A stretch of DNA of 44,054 nt from assembly GCA_045537315.1 (NCBI GenBank), contig JAZSPF010000042.1, positions 1-44,054 on the forward strand, written 5' to 3'. Shown here in pieces: positions 4,995 through 43,997 of the stretch; the first letter of the stretch is position 1; each line of letters starts with the position of its first letter. The position numbers were made by a program, and so were the translations under genes. The notes below the pieces were generated by a model, which worked only from the letters and a program-made list of their open reading frames with translations, was not told where the DNA came from and did no database searches. Source of the stretch: Acutalibacteraceae bacterium. Lineage in GTDB: Bacteria; Bacillota; Clostridia; Oscillospirales; Acutalibacteraceae.

Positions 4995-5110
4995 GGGGGG
5001 CGGCTCCGCTGCCGAAGCGGTGCTTCGGCAAGCGACGCTGTCGCACAAAATCGCAAAGCGATTTTTGCGGAGCCGCCGCCCGCTTCATCACACTGACATA
5101 AATCGTCAGC
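4995..5110 (-). repeat. four-helix-junction repeat, copy A (with 5' CTGAC/GTCAG hairpin module)
   Basis: Read on the minus strand: P1 GGCGGCTCCGC/GCGGAGCCGCC, P2 AAAATCGC-TTT-GCGATTTT, P3 GCGAC-AGC-GTCGC, P4 TGCCGAAGC-ACC-GCTTCGGCA. Same architecture as the copies at 21515 and 43884. Confidence 0.85.
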
Positions 5111-8912: not shown

Positions 8913-8914
8913 GA

Positions 8915-9080
8915 ATGATATCCGTTTCTTGGGGAACGGGTGATATATCTTCGATATGATATCGCTCTGCGAGCGATGATATATGCCTGCGGCATATGAA
9001 GGAATGGATATTATATCATATTTGCAGAGCAAATATATCATACAGCTTGCTGTATATCATATCGCGTCAGCGATATATCA
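8915..9080. repeat. array of about 8 short hairpins with conserved (T)ATAT(CA) flanks and variable GC cores, period about 20 nt
   Basis: Examples: ATCGCTC-TGC-GAGCGAT, ATATGCC-TGC-GGCATAT, ATATTTGC-AGA-GCAAATAT, ATACAGC-TT-GCTGTAT, ATATCGC-GTCA-GCGATAT, CCGTT..AACGG. Units are separated by GATAT/ATATCA. Confidence 0.75.
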
Positions 9081-21514: not shown

Positions 21515-21626
21515 CTGACGATTTTGGTTAGTTTGATGAAGAGGTGGCGGCTCCACAAAAATCGCTTTGCGATTTTGGGCGACGGTGTCGCTTGCCGAAT
21601 GAAATTCGGCAGTGGAGCCGCCGCAA
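21515..21626 (+). repeat. four-helix-junction repeat, copy B
   Basis: 5' hairpin CTGAC-gattttg-GTTAG. P1 GGCGGCTCCAC/GTGGAGCCGCC (21546-56/21612-22), P2 AAAATCGC-TTT-GCGATTTT, P3 GCGAC-GGT-GTCGC, P4 TGCCGAAT-GAA-ATTCGGCA. Confidence 0.85.
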
Positions 21627-29074: not shown

Positions 29075-30202
29075 TTACCTCTTCATTATGGTGTTCATGG
29101 CTTTTTTGATGCCGCTTATAAAATAGTCGAGTTCTGCTTCGGTTGTAAACCTTGAAAGGCTCACACGAAGTGAGGAGTCAATCTGTCTGTCAGAAAGCCC
29201 CATGGCAGTGAGAACATAGCTTTTGTGTCCCTTTGCACAGGCGGAGCCTGAGGAAACATATATGCCCATTGACGACAGCAGATTAAGCACGGTTTCTGAG
29301 CGAAGCCCCTCAAGGGAAAGGTTGACTATATAGGGTAGGGCGTTTTCCGGACTGTTTATGCTGACACCTTCTGTGGCATTCAGTTTATTTATAAAGCTGT
29401 CACGAAGCTTTGTGACTTCAGCAAGGGATTTGCTTACGTTCAACTCTTCCACAGCGCCGAAGAAGCCTGCGATTGCAACCATTGGCTCTGTGCCGGGGCG
29501 AAGGTCTTTTTCCTGACCGCCGCCAAAAGCGTTGGGAGTAAGCTTAGTGCCGTTTTTGACAAAGAGGGCACCTGCGCCTTTTGGACCGTGTATTTTATGT
29601 GAGCTTATACTCATTAAATCTGCACCAAGCTTTTTGACATTAAGGGGGAGCTTGCCGTAAGCCTGAACAGCGTCAATGTGAAAAACGGCAGGTGAGTTTT
29701 TTCTTTTAATGATGTTTTTGATTTTGTCTACCGGTTGAACGGAGCCAACTTCGTTATTGACAGCCATTATGCTCACGAGAACGGTTTTTTCGTCAACTTC
29801 GTTTTCAAGCGTCTCAAGGTCAATGAGTCCCCATTTATCTGTGGGGATTTTAACTACAGTGAAGCCTTCGCTGTGGAGATGCTCAAAGCACTTAAGCACA
29901 CTGGGATGCTCAACGGCACTTGTTATGACCTTGTTGCCTTTTCTTTTCATAGCGTGAGCCGCACCCAGAATTGCAAGGTTATTGCTTTCTGTGCCGCCGC
30001 TTGTGAAAAGGATTTCCTTTTCATCTGCGCTGAGACTTTTTGCAATGGCTCGTCTTGCCGAGATGAGAAGTGTATCGGCATCGATGCCTTTTTCGTGCAG
30101 AGAGGACGGATTTCCCCAACACTCATCTATTGCAAAAAGCATCTTTTCTCTTGCGCTTTTGCAAGGCTTTGTTGTTGCACTGTTATCAAGATAAGCTGTC
30201 AA
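29075..30202 (-). CDS. cysteine desulfurase (NifS/NifZ/IscS class)
   Basis: PLP-lysine SSHKIHGPKG and active-site Cys in SSGSACA. TTG start 8 nt after GGAGG. Sits directly upstream of thiI, as with B. subtilis nifZ-thiI. Confidence 0.88.
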   Translation of the reverse strand: MTAYLDNSATTKPCKSAREKMLFAIDECWGNPSSLHEKGIDADTLLISARRAIAKSLSADEKEILFTSGGTESNNLAILGAAHAMKRKGNKVITSAVEHPSVLKCFEHLHSEGFTVVKIPTDKWGLIDLETLENEVDEKTVLVSIMAVNNEVGSVQPVDKIKNIIKRKNSPAVFHIDAVQAYGKLPLNVKKLGADLMSISSHKIHGPKGAGALFVKNGTKLTPNAFGGGQEKDLRPGTEPMVAIAGFFGAVEELNVSKSLAEVTKLRDSFINKLNATEGVSINSPENALPYIVNLSLEGLRSETVLNLLSSMGIYVSSGSACAKGHKSYVLTAMGLSDRQIDSSLRVSLSRFTTEAELDYFISGIKKAMNTIMKR

Positions 30203-30351
30203 CGGGCATACCTCCTCATCATAATTAGTTTTATTATACTATAAATAAGTTTTTTATGCAATGAATAGCTAAAAAAATAAGGGATATTTTTTTGAATAAA
30301 TCGTAAAATAATTTTAGCTGATCCCAAAACAATCAATAAGGAGACAGGAAA

Positions 30352-31695
30352 ATGCACAACAAACAAAAAAGAAGATTTATCAGAATTATCAGTTTTCTTT
30401 CGGCGGCGGTTATTCTGCTGAGCTTCAGCACCGCCATATTCGCGTCCAAGGCAAAAAAATATGAATTTGCAAACGAGATAGTCTATCAGCGTTCAATGAA
30501 CGAGCTTTGCGAAAACCTTGATAATATCAGCGTCAGCCTGCAAAAAGGCATTTATTGCGGTACCGGAGAAAAACTGCTGAGTGTAGGCAACGAGCTGACA
30601 AGACAGGCAACCGCGGCAAAAATGTGTCTGTCACAGATAACTGACGAAAACATTGTCAGCGAAGAAATCTACAAATTCCTTTCTCAGATAGGCGCCTACA
30701 CAGTTTCACTTGCCCAAGGTGAAGATAAGCTGAGTATTTCTGAGAAAGATGCAGAAAGTCTTGCGGCTTTGCTTGAATATTCTCAGAAGCTGAGCCAATC
30801 CCTCAGCGAAGTCCTTTCCTCATACAGTGACGGCAGTGTTTCCACACAGAATAAAAAAAGCACTTTATCTCTTAATGTACCCGAGATGCCCAAAAGCCTT
30901 TCATCATCCCTTAACGATGCCGAGCAAAGCCTTACAGATTATCCCACACTTATTTATGACGGACCCTTTGCCGACAGCATTCTCAATAAAAAAGGCGGTC
31001 AAAGCCTTGAGGGGCTTCGTGAAATAACAAAGGAAGAAGCAAAGAAAAAAGCCGCCGAAATTATGAATACTGCCCCCGAAAGTCTCAGACAGGAAGAGGA
31101 CAGCAACTCAAAGATACCGCTTTACTGCTTCTCTAAAGGCGATATGAGTGTGGGCATAACAAAAAAAGGCGGCAAAATCTGCTATCTGATAAATCCCGTG
31201 TCACCTCTTGAAGAAACTATCAGCACACAGGAAGCTGTAAAAAGGGCGGGACAGTTTCTTAAAAAGTATGGTTACGACAATATGAAAGAGAGCTACTATA
31301 GTGTTTATGACGGAATTTGTACCGTTAATTTTGCTTACACCAACGAAGGGATAATTCACTACAGTGACCTTATAAAAGTCAGTGTCGCGCTCGACAGTGG
31401 GGAGGTCACTGCCCTTGATGCCACATCTTATCTTGTCAACCACTGCAAAAGGGATATATACGGCACTGTGGTAACGGAAAAAGAGGCTATAGAAAAAGTT
31501 TCTCCCCTGCTTTCCGTAACAGGCACAAAATCGGCGGTTATCCCTCTTGACACGGGCAAGGAAGCCTATTGCTATGAGTTTCACTGTAAGGACAAGCAGG
31601 GTCAGGAAGTTCTGGTCTATATTGACAAGCAAACAGGCGAAGAAAGAGATATTCTGTTGCTGCTTTATGCTGACGGGGGAACGCTGACAAAATAA
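30352..31695 (+). CDS. ypeB: germination protein YpeB-like (PepSY-domain)
   Basis: 447 aa with an N-terminal TM. The length and overall pattern resemble YpeB. Assigned by eye only. Confidence 0.6.
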   Translation: MHNKQKRRFIRIISFLSAAVILLSFSTAIFASKAKKYEFANEIVYQRSMNELCENLDNISVSLQKGIYCGTGEKLLSVGNELTRQATAAKMCLSQITDENIVSEEIYKFLSQIGAYTVSLAQGEDKLSISEKDAESLAALLEYSQKLSQSLSEVLSSYSDGSVSTQNKKSTLSLNVPEMPKSLSSSLNDAEQSLTDYPTLIYDGPFADSILNKKGGQSLEGLREITKEEAKKKAAEIMNTAPESLRQEEDSNSKIPLYCFSKGDMSVGITKKGGKICYLINPVSPLEETISTQEAVKRAGQFLKKYGYDNMKESYYSVYDGICTVNFAYTNEGIIHYSDLIKVSVALDSGEVTALDATSYLVNHCKRDIYGTVVTEKEAIEKVSPLLSVTGTKSAVIPLDTGKEAYCYEFHCKDKQGQEVLVYIDKQTGEERDILLLLYADGGTLTK

Positions 31696-32021
31696 ATGCA
31701 GAATGCAGAGTGCAGAATGCAGAATTGTGGTCGCGACTTTTAAAGTGCAGAACGCAGAGCGCAGAGTGCAGAACGGTGGTCGCGGACATAGCCTACCGCG
31801 ATCAAAAGTTTTTCTCCGCGGAATGAAAACTCAGAAACGGTAAATTTCATCAATCTTAATATAAGGCAGGTCACTACCAAACTGTAGTGACCTGCTGAAC
31901 TTTTATAATTTACAGAGTCGGTATCTTATGCCAACTCTCTTTGCGGGTAAAAATGTACCTTTTAGTTAAAAGTGATCCCGCGACCACAATTCTGCATTCT
32001 GCACTCTGCACTCTGCATTCA
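31695..32021 (+). repeat. heptad-TIR element, copy E1 (about 327 bp)
   Basis: Left end has two units: (RRYGCAG)x4 + AATTGTGGTCGCGAC, then TTTTAAAG + (RRYGCAG)x4 + AACGGTGGTCGCGG. The right end (31978-32020) is the inverted complement of unit 1 with about 1 mismatch. The core holds the hairpin GCAGGTCACTAC/GTAGTGACCTGC. Confidence 0.85.
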
Positions 32022-32050
32022 AAAAGAGCCGTCTTTAAAGCGGCTCTTTT
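32021..32050 (-). terminator. rho-independent terminator for the Asn-rich peptide gene (symmetric)
   Basis: AAAAGAGCCG-tctttaaag-CGGCTCTTTT. Confidence 0.75.
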
Positions 32051-32064
32051 CAAAGAGAGAATAA

Positions 32065-32247
32065 TCAGTTGTTGATATTGTTGTTATTTTTGTTTTGCTG
32101 ATTGTTGTTACTCTTTCCCTGAGACTGAGGAGGATTGGCAGAATTCTGGGAATTTGATTTTGAGTTCTCTCTTCCGGACTGCTTGTTGTTGATATTGTTG
32201 ATGTTACTGCTGTTGTTATTATTGTTGTTGCTGCTGTTGTTGTTCAT
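32065..32247 (-). CDS. 60-aa Asn/Ser/Gln-rich hydrophilic peptide (hypothetical)
   Basis: AGGAG 9 nt upstream of the ATG and its own terminator. Nearly half the residues are Asn and there is no hydrophobic segment. Confidence 0.55.
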   Translation of the reverse strand: MNNNSSNNNNNNSSNINNINNKQSGRENSKSNSQNSANPPQSQGKSNNNQQNKNNNNINN

Positions 32248-32336
32248 AAAGATTATCTCCTTTGCATATAAATCGGATATCCGATTATAGTTTTAACCGC
32301 AGCAAAAGAAATATTCACTCTGCGGGCATGAATTTT

Positions 32337-32365
32337 TTGACAAAAAAATTAAGCATATGTATAAA
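32337..32365 (+). promoter_or_regulatory. promoter candidate for the alcohol dehydrogenase gene
   Basis: TTGACA, 17 nt, TATAAA. Confidence 0.45.
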
Positions 32366-32452
32366 AAATTCCTTTTTGCACTTGCAATAGAAGAAAAATA
32401 ATAGTAATATATAAGATATGTATTATTTCATTTTGAAAGGAAGAAAATAACT

Positions 32453-33658
32453 ATGTGGCAAGTTAAAAAAGCTTTTTACAGAGTTTATCAGCAGGCCTTC
32501 AGAGTAGGCATGTGTGTCTTTGATTGGTCAGAGCCCACTCTTCTTGAGGGTCCCGGTGCTATCAAAAAGCTCCCCGAATTTATCAAGGGTAAGGGTCTCA
32601 ACAAGGTTCTTGTTGTAACAGATAAGGGTCTTATGGGCATCCACCTTCTTGATTCTCTTTTTGAAGAGCTTGAAAAAGCAGGTGTTGAGTATGTTGTTTA
32701 TGACGGAACTCAGCCCAACCCCTCAATTGAAAATATTGAGGATGCACGTCAGCTTTATGTTGATAACAACTGTGAAGGCGTTATCGCTTTTGGCGGCGGC
32801 TCACCCATGGACTGCGCTAAGGCTGCAGCAGCAAGAGTCACTAACCCGAAAATCCCCGTAAGAAAAATGCGTGGCGTACTGAAGCTTCATCACAAGCTTC
32901 CTCCCTTCTTTGCAGTACCCACAACAGCAGGTACAGGCTCAGAGACTACTCTCGCAGCAGTTGTTACAGACACTGCAACTCACGAAAAGAATGCAATCAA
33001 CGACCCCAGACTCAGACCTAAGTTTGCAGTTCTTGACCCTGAGCTTACAGTAGGTCTTCCCCCTCACATTACCTCAACAACAGGTATGGATGCTCTCACT
33101 CACGCAGTTGAGGCTTACATAGGCAAGAGCAATGTCAAGTCAACAGAGGCTTATGCTGAAAAGGCAACAAAGATGATTTTTGAAAACATCGAAACTGCTT
33201 ATGCTGACGGCAAAAACATTGAAGCAAGAAACAATATGCTCAAGGCTTCCTTCTATGCAGGTCAGGCTTTCACAAGAGCATATGTAGGTTATGTACACGC
33301 TATCGCTCACAATCTTGGCGGTCACTACGGCGTACCTCACGGTCTTGCAAATGCAGTTATCCTTCCTTATGTGCTTGAATATTACGGCGAGAGCGCACAC
33401 AAGCGTCTTGCAAAGCTTGCAGTTATTGCAGGAGTTAAGACAGACGGTACAGATAAGGAAAAGGCAGAGGCATTCATCGAAGCTATCAAGACTCTCAACA
33501 AGAATATGAATATCCCCGACAGCTTTGATATGGTTCAGGAAAAGGATATTCCCGTTATCGTTGAAAGAGCTCTCAAGGAAGGCAATCCTCTTTATCCCGT
33601 ACCTAAGATTATGGATAAGGCAGACTGCGAAGCTGTAATCAGAAGAATGATGAAATAA
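32453..33658 (+). CDS. iron-containing (group III) alcohol dehydrogenase
   Basis: 401 aa. GGGSPMDCAKA motif and His cluster (HAVEAY...HAIAHNLGGHYGVPHG). Confidence 0.9.
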   Translation: MWQVKKAFYRVYQQAFRVGMCVFDWSEPTLLEGPGAIKKLPEFIKGKGLNKVLVVTDKGLMGIHLLDSLFEELEKAGVEYVVYDGTQPNPSIENIEDARQLYVDNNCEGVIAFGGGSPMDCAKAAAARVTNPKIPVRKMRGVLKLHHKLPPFFAVPTTAGTGSETTLAAVVTDTATHEKNAINDPRLRPKFAVLDPELTVGLPPHITSTTGMDALTHAVEAYIGKSNVKSTEAYAEKATKMIFENIETAYADGKNIEARNNMLKASFYAGQAFTRAYVGYVHAIAHNLGGHYGVPHGLANAVILPYVLEYYGESAHKRLAKLAVIAGVKTDGTDKEKAEAFIEAIKTLNKNMNIPDSFDMVQEKDIPVIVERALKEGNPLYPVPKIMDKADCEAVIRRMMK

Positions 33659-33731
33659 GAACCAGACCCGATGAGCAATCGAAGGTTGCGGTCGGGCACC
33701 ACGGAACTTTGTTGTTTCACAATAAAAATTA

Positions 33732-33771
33732 TCGGTGTTCTCTCTCTTGGAGAACACCGATGTTGTTTTTT
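33732..33771. terminator. terminator between convergent genes
   Basis: TCGGTGTTCTC-tctcttg-GAGAACACCGA followed by a T-rich tract. Confidence 0.7.
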
Positions 33772-33776
33772 GTTGC

Positions 33777-34934
33777 TTAATACATAAGATAGCTCACAAG
33801 CATACTCAGTAGAGTTTCGCCGAAATATGCTGCAAATACAAGCAGGAATGAAGCACCGCCGTATTTTGCGAAGACGCTGATTTTTTCCTGAACTGTCTTT
33901 TTGGCAAGACCTTGGTGTATCATTTTAATGCAGTATTTCTTATACATATCGTTGGCGATGAAGCCGCTTATAAGATGCATTATGAATGTTACTGCGGCAA
34001 CAATTGTGAGAGGAAGCATAATATCATTGATTATAAGCATCATCTGCTCTGACAGCTCGTTTACCATTGCCTCGCTCAGTGTCTCAGCATCCAAAGTAAG
34101 CATATATTCATAAAATTCCATGAAGGGAGTGAGAAGCGGCGCCGTAATTATGCTGATTAAAATCTGCACTGTTATAAAAATTATGCCGGGCTTATAAAGC
34201 TTGCGGTAAAAGAACCAGTAAGGCGAGAATAAGAATGCTGCCCAGTTGAAGCTGTTTCTGCCTCTTATTTCACTCCACTTGAATTTGTTGATATATGTCT
34301 GTGCATTGTTTCTGATAAATGAGCCGAGGGTGTTTGTGCGTACTCCTGAGGTGTAATCTTCAACAGGGAAAGGACCCTTAAAGGTGTTGATTTCCTCATA
34401 ATCGGCATAGCCGCCTAAATTCCACGGGTTCGTACCCTCAGGTCTTTCCTGGGCGCTTTCTTCGCTTGCTTCATCTTCGGTGAAGCCTTCACCTTTGCCG
34501 ATTTCAAATGGTGCCTCATATTCGGGGATATCCTGAGAATGAGCAGAGGGCTTTTCGTCAGGCAGATTTTTACTGTTTAATTTAAGCTCTTCTTTCTGTG
34601 CAGCCTCAACAATATTAACACCGAACATGGTGAATTTCATCGAGCAGTTTCTGCATTCCTTGCTGCCTGCAGGATTTGCCTGACCGCAGTGAGGGCAGAT
34701 TATATCTTCAGCCTCGGCCTCATTTACAAGGGTGGAGCTGAAAATTGCCTTTTTTGTGCTGACTTCGCCCTTCCATACAAAATCTGTGCCGTGAAGGTGA
34801 GCGTTGACACATTCGCCTTTTTCATCATAGCATTCTCTGTGCTGAGGCGTTGCGCACTCGGGGCACACTACAATATCTTCATCATCAAGCAGAGGCTTTT
34901 TGCAGCCGTCGCAATTGTTACCTGTATATCGCAT
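33777..34934 (-). CDS. zinc-finger / zinc-ribbon protein with C-terminal DUF2628-like membrane domain
   Basis: 385 aa. N-terminal CDGC...CPEC...H..C cluster, then a second ribbon CPHCG...CRNC. The C-terminal NWAAFLFSPYWFFYRKLY plus TM helices look like DUF2628. Confidence 0.6.
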   Translation of the reverse strand: MRYTGNNCDGCKKPLLDDEDIVVCPECATPQHRECYDEKGECVNAHLHGTDFVWKGEVSTKKAIFSSTLVNEAEAEDIICPHCGQANPAGSKECRNCSMKFTMFGVNIVEAAQKEELKLNSKNLPDEKPSAHSQDIPEYEAPFEIGKGEGFTEDEASEESAQERPEGTNPWNLGGYADYEEINTFKGPFPVEDYTSGVRTNTLGSFIRNNAQTYINKFKWSEIRGRNSFNWAAFLFSPYWFFYRKLYKPGIIFITVQILISIITAPLLTPFMEFYEYMLTLDAETLSEAMVNELSEQMMLIINDIMLPLTIVAAVTFIMHLISGFIANDMYKKYCIKMIHQGLAKKTVQEKISVFAKYGGASFLLVFAAYFGETLLSMLVSYLMY

Positions 34935-35053
34935 AATAACTCCTTTAAAAATTCTTCTGTCTATTTATTTTATATCCTTTTATAAGAAAAATCAATCATT
35001 TCATATAAAATATTATACCCCCGCTACTTTAAAGCAAATAAAAAGGCTTACTC

Positions 35054-35082
35054 TTGCAAATATCGCTGCAATATTGTATAAT
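35054..35082 (+). promoter_or_regulatory. promoter candidate for mnmE
   Basis: TTGCAA, 17 nt, TATAAT. Confidence 0.55.
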
Positions 35083-35108
35083 GCCATTAGATTTTATGAG
35101 GTGATTTT

Positions 35109-36473
35109 ATGTCAGACACAATTGCTGCCGTTTCCACCCCCATAGCTTCGGGCGGTATCGGCGTTATAAGAATATCGGGCGATGATGCAATAGCACTTGC
35201 CGACAAGGTTTTCAGAGCTACCTCAGGCAAGCCTCTTTCAGCTTTAAAGGGGTACTCTGCCGCCCACGGCAGGGTACATATGAAGGGTGAGGATATTGAC
35301 GAGTGTGTTGCTCTTGTTTTTCGTGAGCCTAAAAGCTACACAGGTGAAAACACGGTGGAAATATCCTGTCACGGAGGTATCTATGTAACCAATCAGGTGC
35401 TTCGTGCCGTGCTGTCGGCGGGAGCAAGACCTGCTGAAGCCGGCGAATTCACAAAAAGAGCCTTCCTTAACGGCAAAATGGATTTATCTGAAGCGGAAGC
35501 GGTTATGTCGCTTATTTCTGCACAGGGTCAGCAGGGAATGAAGGCGGCTATGACAGCCCTCGACGGTGCGCTCAGCCGCAAGACAGATGAGCTTTGCTCG
35601 GCCCTCATATCAGCCTCTGCACATATGGCGGCATGGGTAGATTACCCCGATGAGGAAATCCCCGAAATAAGCGACGACACACTCAGAGAAACTCTCAGTG
35701 AGGTTAAGTCACAGCTGACGGCACTGCTGTCAAAATTTGATGCAGGCAAGGCGCTGACAAGCGGTGTTGACACTGCTATTGTGGGCAAGCCCAATGTTGG
35801 CAAGTCTGCACTGATGAATATGCTCTCAGGCTTCAGCCGCTCAATTGTGACGGATATTGCAGGCACAACAAGAGACGTTGTTGAAGAAACCGTACGGGTG
35901 GGCAGTGTTATACTTCGCCTTGCAGACACTGCAGGCATAAGAGAAAGCGCTGATGTGGTTGAGAGCATTGGTGTTGACCTTGCCAAGACTAAAATTGAGA
36001 GAGCAGGACTCATACTTGCAGTTTTTGACGGCTCGGCAGAGCTTGACGAAAGCGATAAAGAAATATTTGAGCTTTGCAAGGGCAGGGATGTTATAGCTAT
36101 CATCAACAAAACCGACCTGCCATCGAAAACAGATATTGACTATATAAAGAGTGCCTTTAGCGAAACGGTGTTTATTTCCGCCAAGTCACATGAGGGCGAA
36201 GATGACCTGACTGCCGCAATTGAAAGGGTACTCGGCACAGATAAAATAGACACATCAAAGGCAATGCTCACAACAGAGAGACAGCGCACAAATGCTCTTG
36301 CCGCCCTCCACAGCATAAACGAAGCCGTTGCGGCAATTGATATGGGCATCACTATGGACGCGATTAACGTGTGCATAGATACAGCTATCGACCGCCTTCT
36401 TGAGCTGACAGGCAAAAAGGCAAAGGAAAGCGTTGTGGATGAAGTCTTCTCACAGTTCTGCGTGGGTAAATAA
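35109..36473 (+). CDS. mnmE: tRNA modification GTPase MnmE
   Basis: 454 aa. G1 motif GKPNVGKSALMN and the C-terminal FCVGK signature. Confidence 0.95.
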   Translation: MSDTIAAVSTPIASGGIGVIRISGDDAIALADKVFRATSGKPLSALKGYSAAHGRVHMKGEDIDECVALVFREPKSYTGENTVEISCHGGIYVTNQVLRAVLSAGARPAEAGEFTKRAFLNGKMDLSEAEAVMSLISAQGQQGMKAAMTALDGALSRKTDELCSALISASAHMAAWVDYPDEEIPEISDDTLRETLSEVKSQLTALLSKFDAGKALTSGVDTAIVGKPNVGKSALMNMLSGFSRSIVTDIAGTTRDVVEETVRVGSVILRLADTAGIRESADVVESIGVDLAKTKIERAGLILAVFDGSAELDESDKEIFELCKGRDVIAIINKTDLPSKTDIDYIKSAFSETVFISAKSHEGEDDLTAAIERVLGTDKIDTSKAMLTTERQRTNALAALHSINEAVAAIDMGITMDAINVCIDTAIDRLLELTGKKAKESVVDEVFSQFCVGK

Positions 36474-36484
36474 GAGGTGAAGCT

Positions 36485-37213
36485 ATGAATAAAACCGTTC
36501 TCATAACAGGAGCTTCAGGTGGAATAGGACAGGCACTTTGCCGCCGCTTTGCAAAGGAAGGCTATGATATAATACTTCACTATTTCAGCAGTGAAGATAA
36601 GGCTCTGTGTCTTAAAGACGAATTGGAAAAGCAGTATAGCGTTAAGGCGACAGCCGTTAAAGCAGACCTGAGAAGCAAAGAAGAAATTAAGCTTCTCGCT
36701 GAAAAAGCAGGCGGGGCAGATGTCCTCGTCAACAATGCAGGCATGGCATATTTCAGCCTTTTTCAGCTTGCGGACGAAGATAAAATCAAAGAATTGTTCG
36801 ACATTAACCTTATGAGTGCTATGTCTGTTACAAAAGAAATCCTGCCCTCAATGATAAAAAAACAAAAGGGCAGAATTATCAACATCTCCTCTATGTGGGG
36901 CATTTCGGGTGCTTCCTGCGAAGTGCATTACTCCGCAAGCAAGGCAGCTCTTATCGGCTTCACAAAGGCTCTGGCAAAGGAAGTGGGCCCAAGCGGAATA
37001 ACCGTCAACTGTATTGCTCCCGGCTTTATTGACACTGAAATGAACAGCCATCTTGACGAAGAAAGTGTGAAAGAAATAGTTAATGCTACTCCTATGGGCA
37101 GAAAAGGCACAGGTGATGATGTGGCATCTCTCGCTCTTTATCTCTCAAAAGATGAAGCAGGCTTTATCACGGGTCAGGTCATAAGCGTTGACGGAGGATA
37201 CTCAGGGAATTAG
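36485..37213 (+). CDS. short-chain dehydrogenase/reductase, FabG-like
   Basis: TGASGGIGQA cofactor motif and the YSASK catalytic motif. 242 aa. Confidence 0.85.
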   Translation: MNKTVLITGASGGIGQALCRRFAKEGYDIILHYFSSEDKALCLKDELEKQYSVKATAVKADLRSKEEIKLLAEKAGGADVLVNNAGMAYFSLFQLADEDKIKELFDINLMSAMSVTKEILPSMIKKQKGRIINISSMWGISGASCEVHYSASKAALIGFTKALAKEVGPSGITVNCIAPGFIDTEMNSHLDEESVKEIVNATPMGRKGTGDDVASLALYLSKDEAGFITGQVISVDGGYSGN

Positions 37214-37224
37214 AAATAAGAAAT

Positions 37225-37248
37225 AAAAAAGCCCTTTCGGGCTTTTTT
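37225..37248. terminator. bidirectional terminator
   Basis: AAAAAAGCCC-tttc-GGGCTTTTTT. Confidence 0.85.
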
Positions 37249-37249
37249 A

Positions 37250-37480
37250 TTATTTGTTTTCGTCGATGTAAGCAACAAGGTCGCCTACGGTTACGAGCTT
37301 CATAAGCTCTCTGTCGGGAATTTCAATGCCGAAGTGATCCTCTACTTCGCAGATAAGACCGAAAATTTCAAAGGAGTTCATAACCATATCGGTTGTGAAA
37401 ACTGTGCTTTCGGTGAATTCAGGTACGGGATTACCTGTGTAATCCTCAAAGATCTTTTTGAGCTGTTCGATTGTACTCAT
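37250..37480 (-). CDS. acyl carrier protein-like
   Basis: 76 aa, acidic. Candidate phosphopantetheine serine in DMVMNSFEIF. AAAGGAAA RBS. Confidence 0.65.
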   Translation of the reverse strand: MSTIEQLKKIFEDYTGNPVPEFTESTVFTTDMVMNSFEIFGLICEVEDHFGIEIPDRELMKLVTVGDLVAYIDENK

Positions 37481-37548
37481 TTTAATTTTCCTTTCTTATT
37501 TAGCTTTTAGATATAGTAGTTACCCCATAAGTGGGTTTTGGTTCTCTC

Positions 37549-38862
37549 TTATTCTTCTGTGTTCTTTTTGGGCTTTCTGCTTTCAGCAAAACGCTTGTTA
37601 TAGATTTCTTCTGTTGCCAGGGCAATCTTTGTTACCTTGATGTTTTTGTCTTCGGGGAAGATATACCATGTGTCATCAAGTGTGTTAAGATTGATGCAGT
37701 CACGGCCCCAGCCGAAGCGGTATTTATATTCAACATGGCAGGCATACTGCTGAAGGGCGGGGATATCCATTCCGAACTTTTCGCCGTCATATTCGCGTAC
37801 ACCCTCAAGCTTAAAGCCGTCATAATCGTGAACGAGATGACCTTCACCCATATAGATGAAGCCTTTTGCGTTGGGCAGGTCATTAACCTTGACATCGCAT
37901 TCAGTGCGGTATGTGCCGGCATAAACTTCTTTTTTAACTTCTTCGCGTTCCCACTTGTACCAATCTGAGGGGAATTTGAATTCGGTTTCGCCCTTGTCAG
38001 CCTCAAGCTCACCGTAGTAGTTGAGAGTCCAGCTCTTGCCGCATTCGCCGCAGAAAAGTTGTGCGCCCTTTGAGCTCATTTTTGTTTCGCAACCGCAGGC
38101 GGGACATTTGTAAAGAATATTATCGAGACCTTCTGCACGGGTCTTTTTCTTAACCTTTACTCTGTTTTCGCTCTGCCATCTCCAGTCGTCGTTCCAGAGA
38201 GCTTCTCTTATTTTTGCATTGATTTCTTCGGGAGTAGCTGCCTTAACCTGCTCAGCAGTCATAAGCTGTGTCTGAACGGCTTCTGTTCTGAGGAACCAAC
38301 GGAAGGATTTCATATTCCAGTAAGGATTATAAATATGGTGACCCATCATCTTGATGGTTACAACAGGTACACCGAGGAATTTGACGAGCTGACCCACGGA
38401 ATCGGGTATAACCTCTGTGATGCCGCACAGTGAGTAACGAGCCTCAGCATAAAGGCCATACATTTCGCCGTTTTTGACAACCTTTCTTCCGATACGGATA
38501 AGGCTGAGGTCTGTTGTGAACTTTCTTGTGGGAATAATGCCTATTCTTCTTGAAACCCATTCTCTGCCGATGAAGTCGTCAACTGCACCGGGGAAGTGAC
38601 CTCTGTGAGGCTTTATAAGTGAACTCATAATATAGAAATCATAGAATGAGTTATGATTGCAAATAAGAATGTAGGGAGGCTTTACACCTTCCATATTATT
38701 TTTTTCAACTTTAACTCTGTGGAGCCACTGTCTTAATGTTGTACCTATCCAGATAATCCAGACAAGGTACCATTTCTGTCCCTTGGGTTCCTGAGTCATA
38801 TCAAACTTTTTTTCTGCCGGCGGACCTTGCCAGATACGCTTGCCGATTTTCTTGTATTTCAT
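37549..38862 (-). CDS. PlsC-family acyltransferase with C-terminal zinc-ribbon-containing extension
   Basis: HX4D motif in ICNHNSFYDF. The later CPACG...CGECG ribbon is followed by about 150 aa I do not recognise. The start is uncertain: 38862 (MKYKK), 38880 (ATG) or 38940 (TTG). A TATAAT lies inside the longest version. Confidence 0.7.
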   Translation of the reverse strand: MKYKKIGKRIWQGPPAEKKFDMTQEPKGQKWYLVWIIWIGTTLRQWLHRVKVEKNNMEGVKPPYILICNHNSFYDFYIMSSLIKPHRGHFPGAVDDFIGREWVSRRIGIIPTRKFTTDLSLIRIGRKVVKNGEMYGLYAEARYSLCGITEVIPDSVGQLVKFLGVPVVTIKMMGHHIYNPYWNMKSFRWFLRTEAVQTQLMTAEQVKAATPEEINAKIREALWNDDWRWQSENRVKVKKKTRAEGLDNILYKCPACGCETKMSSKGAQLFCGECGKSWTLNYYGELEADKGETEFKFPSDWYKWEREEVKKEVYAGTYRTECDVKVNDLPNAKGFIYMGEGHLVHDYDGFKLEGVREYDGEKFGMDIPALQQYACHVEYKYRFGWGRDCINLNTLDDTWYIFPEDKNIKVTKIALATEEIYNKRFAESRKPKKNTEE

Positions 38863-39051
38863 AAATCCATAAACCCCCATTTTATATTGGTTGTAGTAAT
38901 TATAGCAAATTTTCTTCTTTTTTGCAACAAAATCAGACAAAATCGGGATAAAAATGTCACTTTAGACAAAATGTTTTGATCCTACATAGTTTTTTTCAAT
39001 GAAAAGCCTATGGTCAGTGAAAATACTGTTACGAAACAGTAAACGAATATG

Positions 39052-39086
39052 TAAAAACAGAGCTGCCAGCAATGTGACAGCTCTGT
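39052..39086 (-). terminator. rho-independent terminator of the EF-G-like gene
   Basis: On the minus strand: ACAGAGCTG-...-CAGCTCTGT followed by TTTTT. Confidence 0.75.
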
Positions 39087-39103
39087 GAGTGACGAAATTT
39101 TAA

Positions 39104-41173
39104 TTATTCTTCGGCGTCTTTCTTAGCGTCTTCAATAACCTTTTGAGCTACGTTGGCAGGAGCATCCTCATATCTTGCGAATGTAAGGCTGAAATAGCCT
39201 CTGCCTGCTGTTACTGAACGAAGTGTTGTTGAGAAGTCGCCCATTTCTGCCATGGGTACTTCGGCAACGAGTTCCTGCATCATAGGCTCATCTGCTGCAC
39301 CCATACCGAGTACGCGGCCACGGCGCTTTGTGATATCACCCATAATGTCACCCAGGTTGATGTCGGGCATATAAACCTTAAGCTCACCGATGGGTTCAAG
39401 GATAACGGGGCTTGCCTGAGCCATACCATTCTTGAAGGCTATCTTAGCGGCTGTCTTGAATGCCATTTCGTTTGAGTCAACGGGATGGTATGAGCCGTCG
39501 TAAAGCACTGCCTTAAGACCAACAACGGGATAACCTGCAAGGGGACCCTTGAGGATAGCTTCCTGAAGACCTTTTTCAACTGCAGGGAAGAAGTTCTTGG
39601 GTACTGAGCCGCCGACAACTTCTGTTTCGAAGATAAGGTGATCTTCTGTATGGGGTTCGAAGCGTACCCAAACATCACCGAACTGACCTGAACCGCCTGA
39701 CTGCTTCTTGTGACGTCCCTGAACCTGACAGGTCTTGCGGATGGTCTCTCTGTATGCAACCTTGGGAATGCGAAGGTCGATTTCTACGCCGTACTTTGTC
39801 TTGAGCTTTGAAACAACGATATCAAGATGCTGTTCGCCGAGACCTGAAAGTACCATTTCCTTGGTTTCTTCATTTGTTGCAAACTTAACTGTGGGATCTT
39901 CGTCCATAATCTTACGAAGACCTGAAGCAACCTTTTCTTCTTCGCCCTTTTTCTTAACTACAACTGCCATTGAAAGTGAAGCTGCGGGGAAGTCTACGCC
40001 TTCGAGAGTGATGGGCTTTTTAGCTGAGCAGATAGTGTCACCTGTCTGAACATCCTGAAGCTTTGTGATAACGCCGATGTCACCCAGGTCGATAGCTGCT
40101 GTGTCTTCCTGCTTAATACCCTTAACGGTAACGAGCTTACCCATTCTCTGGGTTTCGCCTGTTCTTGCGTTATAGCAGGGTGTGTCGGGAGTAATCTTAC
40201 CTGCAAGCACCTTAACGAAGGACATCTTGCCTACGAAGGGGTCAGAGATTGTCTTGAAGCAAAGAGCTGCAAGGTCTTCCTTGGCTGAGCAAGCAATTTC
40301 AACATCGTTGCCGTCTGCATCCTTAGCGATTTCAGGCTTAGCCTTATCGGGTGAGGGAGCTGAATATACAATAGCGTCAAGGAGCATATCACAGCCGTCA
40401 ACCTTAGTTGCTGAAAGTGCATAAACAGGATAGATTTCGCCTGTTTCAACGCCCTTTGTAAGTCCGTTTATGATTTCTTCTTTTGTGAGAGGTTCGCCTT
40501 CAAAGAATTTTTCCATAAGCTCTTCGTCAACGGTTGCAACAGCTTCTTCAAGAGCTGCTCTCATAGCAAGAATATTCTCATCTGAAGGGATTTCAATTTC
40601 AACGGGTCTGCCGTTGGGATATTTGAAAGCCTTGTTTGAGCAAAGATTTACAAAAGCTTCGCAAACGCCGCCGTTCATATAAGGTACAACAACGGGGCAG
40701 AGCTTTGTGCCGAGATGTGCCTTTAAGGTGTCAAATGTTTTATAGAAATCTCTGTGCTCTGAGTCAACCTTTGTGATTGCAAAGAACTTAGCGATATTTC
40801 TTGCATCTGCTGCCTTTATAGCCTTTTCAAGACCGACGTCGATGCCTGAGCCTGCTGATGTAACGATAAGTGCGCAGTCTGCTGCACGCATAGCTTCAGC
40901 CATTCCGCCGGCGAAGTCGAACTTACCGGGGGCATCAAGAACGTTAATCTTTGTGTCTCTCCACTCTAATGATGCAGTTGCAGCTGAGATTGAGCACTTG
41001 CGCTTCTTTTCTTCTGCATCGTAGTCCATTATTGTATTACCGTCGATTACACGGCCGAGTCTGTCTGTTACACCTGCAACATAGAACATAGCTTCTGCAA
41101 GTGCTGTCTTACCTTTACCTGTATGTCCCGCAATGGCGATGTTTCTGATGTTGTTTACTGAATAAGATTTCAA
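39104..41173 (-). CDS. elongation factor G paralog (EF-G2-like translational GTPase)
   Basis: About 689 aa with five-domain EF-G length. G1 AGHTGKGKT, G3 DAPG, G4 TKVD. Start is probably the TTG at 41173, 8 nt after GGAGG; the ORF-track start at 41179 is only 2 nt from the RBS. Confidence 0.8.
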   Translation of the reverse strand: MKSYSVNNIRNIAIAGHTGKGKTALAEAMFYVAGVTDRLGRVIDGNTIMDYDAEEKKRKCSISAATASLEWRDTKINVLDAPGKFDFAGGMAEAMRAADCALIVTSAGSGIDVGLEKAIKAADARNIAKFFAITKVDSEHRDFYKTFDTLKAHLGTKLCPVVVPYMNGGVCEAFVNLCSNKAFKYPNGRPVEIEIPSDENILAMRAALEEAVATVDEELMEKFFEGEPLTKEEIINGLTKGVETGEIYPVYALSATKVDGCDMLLDAIVYSAPSPDKAKPEIAKDADGNDVEIACSAKEDLAALCFKTISDPFVGKMSFVKVLAGKITPDTPCYNARTGETQRMGKLVTVKGIKQEDTAAIDLGDIGVITKLQDVQTGDTICSAKKPITLEGVDFPAASLSMAVVVKKKGEEEKVASGLRKIMDEDPTVKFATNEETKEMVLSGLGEQHLDIVVSKLKTKYGVEIDLRIPKVAYRETIRKTCQVQGRHKKQSGGSGQFGDVWVRFEPHTEDHLIFETEVVGGSVPKNFFPAVEKGLQEAILKGPLAGYPVVGLKAVLYDGSYHPVDSNEMAFKTAAKIAFKNGMAQASPVILEPIGELKVYMPDINLGDIMGDITKRRGRVLGMGAADEPMMQELVAEVPMAEMGDFSTTLRSVTAGRGYFSLTFARYEDAPANVAQKVIEDAKKDAEE

Positions 41174-41348
41174 TTCCAATACCTCCTAAGACCTCATTTT
41201 TACAAGGTCCCTAATTATTTTAAAACCTCAAAGTTTTCTCCTTTTGAAGTTAACATTAGTTATTTTATCATAAATTAGACAAAAAAACAACGGATTATTG
41301 ACTAATTTTATGCATTATTTTTTGGTCAGTGTGTATAAAAACCTAAAT

Positions 41349-41760
41349 AAATGCAAAATGCAGAGTGTAGAATGCGGAATTGTGGTCGTTACTTTTAAAG
41401 TGCAGAACGCAGAACGCAGAGTGCAGAACGGTGGTCGCGTGTAAAGCTCTGCTTAAGGATAATTCTTACCAGCAAAGGAAATTGGTATCAGATACCGACT
41501 CCCAAGATTATAATCCTTATCCGTCACTGCGTGACACCTTCCCTTGTGTTAAGGGGAAGGCGTAAATAAAGCAAGTCACTACCGATTTGGAAGTGACTTG
41601 CCATCGTTTATTAAGATTGATGAGTTTTGCCGCCTTTGAGCTTCATCTACGCGGAGGGAGACTCAAGGTTAGTCAGTGGTGAAGTCGCGACCACCGTTCT
41701 GCACTCTGCGCTCTGCGTTCTGCACTTTAAAAGTCGCGACCGCAATTTAGCATTTTTAAA
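41349..41760 (-). repeat. heptad-TIR element, copy E2 (about 410 bp, core inverted relative to E1)
   Basis: Two heptad units on the left (41349-41441). On the right, an inverted unit 2 plus a truncated unit 1 (41684-41760). The core aligns to the reverse complement of the E1 core and carries an extra ~60 nt (41510-41570). Confidence 0.85.
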
Positions 41761-42274
41761 TAGCTATCATAATGCTGATAACGAGAATTGCAAGGAAGGT
41801 CAATGAGTACCTCTCAAGATAAGCGCCCACATAAGTTATTGCAACACCCGGAGCGTAAATAATCTTCTGAAGGATGTTGCCATTATGATAAACCTTATCT
41901 ACCATATTCATGGCATCCTCAATAAGAGGGAAGGCGTTGCAGAAAAGTGAAACCGCAAACCAATAGGAAACTGCGCAGGTAGCGACTAAGAATGCACCTT
42001 TGAACTGTAACCACAGAAGCATCATTGCAGGAATAAGACCGAAGATGAAGGCACCCAGCATATTGAAGAAGAAGGGTACAAAGCACATAGCGAAGGCTGA
42101 ACGTGCAGTGGGCATAAGCTCGTGCTCAATGTGGCTTGACATTTCATCGCGTCTGAGGTAACGGTTATCCTCAACAACAACCTTTGAAGCACGGCATACG
42201 GTCTGTTCCCACATGCCTCTGACAAGGGCACCGGGAGCTGTTAAATATTTAAGAAAGATGTAAAGTCCTGTCAT
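41756..42274 (-). CDS. hypothetical polytopic membrane protein
   Basis: 172 aa with 4 hydrophobic segments. Its ATG overlaps the stop of the upstream gene (ATGA at 42274). Confidence 0.6.
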   Translation of the reverse strand: MTGLYIFLKYLTAPGALVRGMWEQTVCRASKVVVEDNRYLRRDEMSSHIEHELMPTARSAFAMCFVPFFFNMLGAFIFGLIPAMMLLWLQFKGAFLVATCAVSYWFAVSLFCNAFPLIEDAMNMVDKVYHNGNILQKIIYAPGVAITYVGAYLERYSLTFLAILVISIMIAI

Positions 42275-43734
42275 CAGATGCTACCTCCCTTGTCTGCTAA
42301 AACTTCCTCGAGTGTCAGCTTGTCTTTCTTGTACTTTTCAACAAGGTCACTGAGTTCATAGCCGCTGTTTTCGAGTATGGATTTCATTTCGTCATAGATA
42401 TCTTCGTTGCCGTTATATGCGGCGCAAAGAGCATAGAGGTTGCAGGTCTGCACCGTGTAAGCACTCTGAGCCATATATTCATCCATTGTTTCAAGAGCTG
42501 TATCACCTTCGCCCTTGAGAAGATATGCTATAGCCATTGTGGGCATATATGAAATATCGCCTGAGGGAAGATTTGCTTTTGCCTCTTCACAGACTTCGAG
42601 CATCTTATCTGTGTCGGGAGTTTCAAGCCAGCGGTAGTAGCTTGCTTTGGCAACATAAGCGTTGGAGTCTTCTTTGTTGATGTTTACGAGTCTCTGATAA
42701 AGTTCTTCTACAAGCTCGCCGTCACCTGCTTTTGCTGCTATTGCACAGTAGTTTGCAAGATAAGCCCATTCCATATTTCTGTCGTTGATTTCGTCAACCT
42801 TTTTCAGCTGAGCAAGCTGTGCGTCAACGCTTTCTTCATGGAAGCTCATAACAACATATTTGTAGTATTCGATGAATAAGGGGTCATAAGCTTCGATGCC
42901 TTCCTCTTCTGAGGGAGTTGTTTCGTAAAGAGCGTCAAGCTGTGCCATTATTTCATCATAGTCATACTCTTCGCCTGTCATTACGGGTTCAATAATTTCT
43001 GCAACCTTATAATATGTTTTGGTCAGTGATGTGGCACTGTCAAGCAAAGCTGCATATTTTTTATTCCAGGGCATTTTAAGCTGTTTTTCACTGTAAAGTC
43101 TCTCAATGAGAGCTGCGGCATCAGTGATATAGCCTGTTTTGCCATAGCCTTCAAGAAGATCTCTGACAGCCTTCATTGAAATTGTTTCATCACTTGCTGA
43201 TGAAACATAGCTGTAATAAGCTGTCATGCCTGTCATAACCTTGCCTGAGTCATAGTTGAGTGACGCATCGGCAACGGTGATAAAGGCCTCAGTGTAGCCT
43301 GCGCTTGCAACGCCTGTGAGTATGAAAACGGCAATCATAACAATTGTCATAAGAACACCGCTCCAGCGAACGGGATATTTCTTCATAAGTTCACGGCATT
43401 CATCACAGTAGGGATAATCCTCTCCGTAGTCTTCACTGCATTCGTTTTCACCGCAACATTCACAGAGTCTTATCTCTTTTTTCTCTTCTTCGGCAGAGTC
43501 CTCTGTATCGGTTTCGTTTATGTCCTCAAGCTCCTGAATGAGGACTTCTTCTTCGCTTGCAGCTTTATCAAGCTCCTGCTGGAACATATCTCTTATGTCT
43601 TCGAGCTCCTTTTCCAATTCGACAGCTTCTTCGGTTGCTTCCTCGGCAACTTCGTCAGCTACGGGTAAATCTGATGCTTCAGGTACCTGAGGGGTGTCCT
43701 GAGCTTCAAGCTCGTCTTTTCTGTTTTCGTCCAA
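42274..43734 (-). CDS. hypothetical protein: acidic N-terminus, Cys-rich zinc-ribbon, one TM, helical-repeat (TPR-like) C-terminal domain
   Basis: 486 aa. CECCGENEC...CDEC cluster and TM VLMTIVMIAVFILTGVASAGY. TTG start 8 nt after GGAGG. Confidence 0.6.
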   Translation of the reverse strand: MDENRKDELEAQDTPQVPEASDLPVADEVAEEATEEAVELEKELEDIRDMFQQELDKAASEEEVLIQELEDINETDTEDSAEEEKKEIRLCECCGENECSEDYGEDYPYCDECRELMKKYPVRWSGVLMTIVMIAVFILTGVASAGYTEAFITVADASLNYDSGKVMTGMTAYYSYVSSASDETISMKAVRDLLEGYGKTGYITDAAALIERLYSEKQLKMPWNKKYAALLDSATSLTKTYYKVAEIIEPVMTGEEYDYDEIMAQLDALYETTPSEEEGIEAYDPLFIEYYKYVVMSFHEESVDAQLAQLKKVDEINDRNMEWAYLANYCAIAAKAGDGELVEELYQRLVNINKEDSNAYVAKASYYRWLETPDTDKMLEVCEEAKANLPSGDISYMPTMAIAYLLKGEGDTALETMDEYMAQSAYTVQTCNLYALCAAYNGNEDIYDEMKSILENSGYELSDLVEKYKKDKLTLEEVLADKGGSI

Positions 43735-43883
43735 GATAAAGACCTCCTTAAAGTAATATTCTTTATTTTAGCATTTATTGAAATAAAATGCAACTGTTTA
43801 GCTGTTTAATTATGGGGATAAAACTTAAGAACAAGTTAAAAATTCAAACTGATAAGGCAGCTTTTAACTTTGCAAGGGGGAGA

Positions 43884-43997
43884 TTTGTCGTCAGTGTGTG
43901 CGGGGCGGCTCCACAAAAATCGCTTTGCGATTTTGGGCGACCTTCGGTCGCTTGCCTGACGCAGTCAGGCAGTGGAGCCGCCCACCGCTATCTGACG
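43884..43997 (+). repeat. four-helix-junction repeat, copy C
   Basis: P1 GGCGGCTCCAC/GTGGAGCCGCC (43904-14/43972-82), P2 AAAATCGC-TTT-GCGATTTT, P3 GCGACC-TTC-GGTCGC, P4 TGCCTGAC-GCA-GTCAGGCA. Outer pairing CGTCAG (43889-94) / CTGACG (43992-97). Confidence 0.85.

Follow-up and report, generated by a model that had tools for sequence, protein, structure and literature searches.

The 23S rRNA intervening sequence of Coxiella burnetii is bounded by a 28-bp terminal inverted-repeat stem, contains tandem heptameric repeats upstream of the S23p ORF, is excised by RNase III and has been described as a selfish element whose mobility is unexplained (PMC4990558). This intervening sequence is the closest described relative of the cassette family to which E2, a repeat found in a 44,054-nucleotide stretch of DNA (hereafter the window) from an Acutalibacteraceae bacterium, probably belongs. 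The ORF-bearing 23S intervening sequences, as known in helix 45 of C. burnetii and in Leptospira (PMC4990558), resemble the cassette family in having a long inverted-repeat stem, tandem heptameric repeats in the stem region and a PF05635 four-helix-bundle cargo, in the existence of gene-less or decaying forms and in being regarded as selfish. E2 differs from these sequences in that it lies between two protein genes and not in helix 25 or 45 of a 23S rRNA gene, lacks an ORF, has its arms doubled, contains extra modules in a conserved hairpin core, and occurs in ~50 copies per genome. Bacterial MITEs such as Correia and RUP are, like E2, short, non-coding, multi-copy and intergenic, with terminal inverted repeats that give a hairpin when transcribed. 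Correia and RUP have TA duplications and known transposase partners, whereas E2 has neither a TA duplication nor a transposase partner. With the REPIN and BIME elements that go with RAYT, E2 shares the inverted doublet and the formation of a long hairpin after genes without target duplication. REP units are palindromic themselves and flanked by a conserved tetranucleotide, whereas the arms of E2 consist of direct heptad arrays without an associated RAYT. The pneumococcal BOX element is also modular, with a variable number of internal hairpin modules between fixed ends, but it has no sequence relation to E2 and is without heptad arms or a coding partner.

The features of E2 and of its surroundings are given in Table 1. 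With a length of 86 nt and a complementarity of 84%, the arms form the closing stem on each strand, and the fold of E2 departed from that of shuffled sequences with z = −16 and −17 on the two strands; for these reasons a structure arising by chance is excluded. The heptads of an arm unit form a set of four that is fixed, not an array that varies freely, and three types of heptads were found in the family. The sequence-only reading had placed units 1 and 2 on the left of E2 and, on its right, an inverted unit 2 together with a truncated unit 1, and this layout was recovered, with the left unit 2 pairing with its inverted counterpart at one mismatch in 47 positions. The left arm of E2 was 94% identical to the left arm of E1 over 95 nt (repeat D2). 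The coding content of E2 was limited to chance ORFs of 59–61 aa, and the PF05635 ORF was absent. When searched against Rfam, E2 stayed below the gathering score everywhere, and the best match (E 0.66) was to unrelated eukaryotic families. In addition, no direct repeat indicative of a target-site duplication was found at the ends of E1, E2 or the copies on contigs C47, C62, C123 and C187.

Table 1. Position and description of E2, its parts and its neighbours, in coordinates of the window.
Feature	Position	Strand	Description
E2	41345-41760	.	Heptad-armed repeat, hairpin-rich
Left outer arm (unit 1)	41345-41392	.	A-rich end; four heptads at 41352-41379; degenerate anchor at 41380-41392
Left inner arm (unit 2)	41393-41439	.	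Linker; four heptads at 41401-41428; anchor at 41429-41439
Core segment	41440-41516	.	Reverse complement of the right sub-terminal half of E1 and of loaded cassettes; small hairpin at 41484-41496
Two-hairpin insert	41517-41570 (~55 nt)	.	Marker of the long form; hairpins at 41523-41535 and 41537-41560
Central hairpin	41571-41601	.	Double change of G-C to A-T; T-rich runs after the stem on both strands
Core segment	41602-41685	.	Reverse complement of the left sub-terminal half
Right inner arm (inverted unit 2)	41686-41732	.	Identical to unit 2 of E1
Right outer arm (inverted unit 1)	41733-41755	.	Truncated, most heptads absent
172-aa ORF	41756-42274	-	Stop codon adjoins the right end of E2
Region upstream of elongation-factor-like gene	41180-41344	-	Gene itself at 39104-41179
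E1	31690-32026	.	Short-form sister copy used as comparison

E1, the sister copy, has the layout of unit 1, unit 2, core and inverted unit 1. E2 in reverse complement aligned with E1 from end to end at 73% identity, as compared with 65% in the same orientation, and the three blocks that had been named as shared between the two cores were located in E2 at 41611-41622, 41490-41501 and 41469-41478. The core of E2 had been described as inverted, which holds for its reverse-complement match to E1; an inversion of the core inside E2, however, need not be assumed, because E2 turned round reads as truncated unit 1, unit 2, core, inverted unit 2 and inverted unit 1. Compared with E1, the central hairpin carries a paired substitution, G-to-A matched by C-to-T, and the extra segment with two hairpins is present at a length slightly below the ~60 nt first estimated, both as the sequence-only reading had it. 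These distinguishing features of E2, i.e. the insert, the orientation and the hairpin, all recur across the family.

The core matched ~50 loci in the source genome, which is an incomplete MAG of 1.9 Mb in 202 contigs, and at many of these loci both strands matched. Many of the core matches were at contig ends, as expected because a repeat breaks assemblies. An exact scan for the arms in data holding one genome per species returned 89 stretches, all from ruminant-gut MAGs assigned to Acutalibacteraceae or named “Clostridia bacterium”. On this evidence the family is confined to a single genus. The same scan gave no match among viral contigs and one short contig among JGI metagenomes, and nothing was found when metagenomes were scanned with the left flank of E2. 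A query spanning E2 found matches in 22 of 24 genomes of the genus, with arm-only matches included for most of them. The neighbouring genes were convergent at ~20 copies, tandem at 17 and divergent at two, which places the copies at gene 3′ ends. Two contigs were found to begin with the element (C75:59-383 and C116:27-322), and in each of them the two flanks of the element are exact reverse complements of each other, an assembly artefact of the long inverted arms; the two copies were left out of the analysis of ends for this reason.

A gene-carrying counterpart of these elements was found at C187:2998-3638, where a direct array of unit-2-type heptads and its inverted copy flank an ORF of 120 aa. 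The profile matches of this ORF were to PF05635 (23S rRNA intervening-sequence protein, E 9e-30) and TIGR02436 (four-helix-bundle protein, E 4e-33). Its homologues in other species comprised eight genes at seven loci with 67–78% amino-acid identity, and heptad arrays formed an inverted pair around seven of the eight, the gene at L071 showing, at the threshold of the scan, no array but the upstream one. The arrays were located ~90–130 nt upstream and ~80–100 nt downstream of the homologous genes. We refer to this arrangement as the heptad-armed four-helix-bundle cassette, a name coined here and not found in the literature searched, and to its gene-carrying copies as loaded. The segments between arm and gene in the loaded copies of relatives matched the two core halves of E1 and E2 (nhmmer E 1e-7 to 2e-4), and the anchor was present in them. 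Thus, in the empty core the central hairpin stands between the left and right sub-terminal segments, in the place that the gene has in loaded copies. The counterpart of the second core segment of E2 lies immediately upstream of the four-helix-bundle gene in loaded cassettes. E2 therefore shows inverted arms of at least about four 7-base units, and has both arms and sub-terminal segments in common with gene-carrying copies; the loaded copy on C187 shares heptads alone with E2, the anchor being common only to the loaded copies of relatives.

Because most loaded copies came from loci picked for holding an arm, the bracketing of these genes by arms is partly biased. In G003, G005, G012 and G020, arm matches were located ~100 nt from PF05635 genes by two independent searches, which eases this bias but does not remove it. 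PF05635 genes were present in 20 of the 24 sampled genomes of the genus. No 23S rRNA was found assembled in 41 MAGs of the genus, the source genome included, so that the link of the cassettes to true rRNA intervening sequences is drawn from the protein family and the architecture only.

Some neighbouring observations concern the places where such genes occur. In a sheep-rectum MAG (L069:5000-7100), two loaded cassettes stand 1.3 kb apart, in both spacers beside one short gene and immediately upstream of gpmI; the genes around them resemble a glycolytic operon, and the insertions would thus be between genes of a housekeeping operon. An apparent link of the arms to contig C66 was rejected, as it corresponded to the housekeeping gene gpmI, beside which cassettes sit in relatives. 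Downstream of gpmI on that contig (C66:1480-2271, locus L154) lies the region of a Y1 transposase gene with several short GC-rich hairpins around it, unrelated to the heptad arms. Separately, at 8913-9080 of the window, the Gut-1 RNA motif of Rfam matched the start of an array that closely follows a tRNA and in which short motifs, direct at first and inverted later, alternate with hairpins. The same motif was found at C14:2534-2607 (locus L158:1935-2008), with a tRNA on one side and a PF05635 four-helix-bundle gene on the other, and three further paralogues (on C58, C176 and C188) lie behind similar arrays, each with its own motif of 7–9 nt. Gut-1 may belong to the same cassette world as the heptad-armed elements.

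The pairing of the central hairpin was examined in 72 distinct copies, and the hairpin was nearly invariant, with 91.8% of the cells able to pair. Double changes were found at six of its 14 pairs (27 cells), the observed covariation was not reached in any of 500 shuffles, and sliding the partner columns abolished the pairing. The A-U pair of E2 at the changed position was present in this one copy out of 72, the other 71 having G-C; other double changes exist, along with single-sided intermediates. The single-sided changes in these 72 copies were not skewed to wobble pairs on either strand. These results together show that the central hairpin keeps its base pairing, and maintenance at the RNA or at the DNA level is alike compatible with the data. 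The paired changes in a DNA palindrome could also arise by templated repair within the hairpin, without selection at the RNA level. The alignment fold also proposed an outer helix and a second hairpin for the core, but both were rejected since their support was inconsistent; this second hairpin is broken in the dominant long form.

Solo copies of the central hairpin followed by T runs were located directly 3′ of genes (C54:14914-14967, C39:1731-1818, C127:214-293 and C118:8084-8160), and at these four sites the hairpin resembles an ordinary intrinsic terminator. Judged from these solo hairpins and from the T-rich runs on both strands, the central hairpin of E2 therefore looks like a two-way terminator.

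The sequence-only reading had taken the core as a functional folded unit. The maintained pairing of the central hairpin and the modular nature of the insert agree with this view, but that the core is a functional unit in its own right is unsupported, because the conserved unpaired blocks are sub-terminal segments of a gene-carrying cassette. The stronger version, in which the core is the gene of a structured non-coding RNA and the arms are only a clamp, could draw on the covariation of the central hairpin, on the conservation of the unpaired blocks and on loops that vary while stems hold. We nevertheless consider it improbable, since Rfam gave no match, the core had no orientation bias relative to neighbouring genes (10 copies in the same and six in the opposite direction to transcription in tandem contexts), no strand bias of wobble pairs was seen, the orientation flips at orthologous sites, the same conserved blocks flank a protein gene in loaded copies, and in the dominant long form the second core hairpin is broken. 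E2 is probably not a stand-alone RNA gene.

The insert of E2 was found to be one form of a variable module whose site is fixed: it separates the central hairpin from the next conserved block. Its variants are discrete and nested, with lengths of about 26, 33, 55–58, 68 and 114–129 nt, and a matching module at the matching site was present in more than 20 copies in relatives. The variant of 55–58 nt, which is that of E2, is the commonest form in the goat-caecum MAG RGIG1937; in this genome the first stem of the insert is constant with a variable loop, and the second hairpin occurs as two alternative whole hairpins. In E2 itself, one stem is without one G of the consensus, which leaves a bulge. 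Whether the insert also occurs as an independent repeat had been raised by the sequence-only reading, and related two-hairpin modules indeed stand alone without arms, as at C10:15194, C141:238 and L134:4413; such an armless module is probably a small palindromic repeat of its own, which nests in other elements. A different, four-hairpin repeat, present in the window at 21543-21622, 43904-43982 and 5024-5080, was also seen nested in some heptad-armed elements, e.g. on C28, C185, C87 and C54.

The turnover of the elements between species was followed mainly in RGIG1937, which is collinear with the window over 30196-43841 and carries one element at the E1 site and another at the E2 site. The left flank at the latter site was identical at 165 of 165 positions up to the first bases of E2, whereas the element itself was only 73% identical in the left arms, 69% in the core and 57% in the right arms, and the ORF beyond it 86%. 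The RGIG1937 element at this site has A-type heptads in its arms and additional hairpins between the units of its right arm. Its counterpart at the E1 site shares the ends of E1 but has a long-form core in the opposite orientation. An identical flank beside a strongly diverged element indicated that the element at the E2 site turns over faster than its surroundings. The 165 identical nucleotides (41180-41344) were seen in a relative whose nearby genes are 86–97% identical, and point to either a strongly constrained leader or a recent exchange.

Across 13 orthologous sites, all compared between species, the core orientation was the same at eight and flipped at five. Furthermore, E2 was found to be a mosaic, its arms being nearest to E1 and to the copy on C123 of its own genome, and its core nearest to the copy on C19 and to the RGIG1937 element at the E1 site, not to its positional orthologue. 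The prevailing type of heptads also differed, with 23 G-type and 19 A-type arms in the source genome and two G-type and 43 A-type arms in RGIG1937, and in both genomes the loaded copy has the type that prevails in its own genome. At several sites, elements were present in one species and absent in another. No target duplication was seen in such filled and empty pairs, which at ~80% identity are too diverged to define the ends. A clean empty E2 site was not readable in any of the same-genus genomes, where the left flank is kept and followed by unrelated DNA, with the right-flank gene on other contigs. As judged from these comparisons, copies appear to be replaced, flipped or overwritten faster than their flanks change, and recombination through the arms would account for the flips as well as the mosaics.

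The same comparisons bear on the ways in which E2 could have arrived at its site. That E2 is a classical MITE, cut and pasted by a DDE transposase recognising the arms, is suggested by its small size, the absence of coding capacity, its many copies with long terminal inverted repeats and a presence that varies between species. This origin is as improbable as that of an RNA gene, because no well-flanked copy showed a target-site duplication, no arm pair encloses a transposase-sized segment in the source genome (as an incomplete MAG, it could leave such a partner unassembled), and the sole coding partner with these arms carries the four-helix-bundle gene. Lower still we rate an invertible DNA switch with the arms as recombination sites, for which the orientation differences at five of 13 orthologous sites and between E1 and E2 could be taken as signs. 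Most copies, however, lie between convergent genes, where the output of a promoter would be useless, no promoter-like site was called inside the core, and the flips are accompanied by changes of form and arm type, which indicated that copies had been replaced and not simply inverted. A REPIN- or BIME-like doublet moved on single-stranded hairpins by a RAYT-type HUH enzyme is the least credible of these origins, since, although the whole of E2 folds as a long hairpin, is intergenic and has no target-site duplication, its single arms are direct heptad arrays and not palindromes, the only Y1 gene of the genome (C66:1715-2131) is IS200-like, with stop codons and without heptad arms, and a Y1 match is absent in eight of 24 genomes of the genus, whereas 22 of the 24 match the E2-spanning query.

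We consider E2 to be, with good probability, a gene-less, long-form copy of a cassette with heptad arms, of the kind that ORF-bearing 23S rRNA intervening sequences represent. The loaded form of this cassette comprises two inverted arms, each with four 7-base units and a short anchor, the sub-terminal segments and a 120-aa PF05635 four-helix-bundle gene. In E2 and its ~50 sisters, the conserved terminator-like hairpin stands in for the gene, and the long form adds two small hairpins. The descent may have been in either direction, the empty copy arising from a loaded one or an empty copy having captured the gene. E2 is probably transcribed as the 3′ tail of the 172-aa ORF on the minus strand, because it follows the stop codon of this ORF and no terminator was called between them. 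In such a transcript, the arm stem of 45–90 bp may be cut by RNase III, by analogy with the rRNA intervening sequences, and the central hairpin would stop read-through in both directions. Copies could spread or be overwritten by way of their arms, through an activity linked to the four-helix-bundle protein or through recombination between copies.

A more specific possibility, which we put forward tentatively and hold to be rather unlikely as it stands, is that the heptad arms are binding arrays for a ring-forming four-helix-bundle protein, which mobilises or overwrites loaded and empty copies without a canonical transposase. The family of four-helix-bundle proteins also includes an accessory factor of diversity-generating retroelements; no match to a reverse transcriptase was found in the source genome. 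To our knowledge, the origin and movement of rRNA intervening sequences and the role of their four-helix-bundle protein have stayed unexplained for some thirty years. If mobilisation by the protein were true, E2 and the C187 element would be, respectively, the non-autonomous and the autonomous partner in a new class of mobile elements, which would also explain the rRNA intervening sequences, and the agreement between the heptad type of the loaded copy and that of its genome would reflect co-evolution of the protein and its sites. The genus is a natural test bed for these ideas, with arms shared by loaded and empty copies, dozens of empty copies having a conserved core, and orthologous sites that differ in content, orientation and arm type; E2 is particularly useful among them, having an orthologue with a perfectly conserved flank beside a strongly diverged element.
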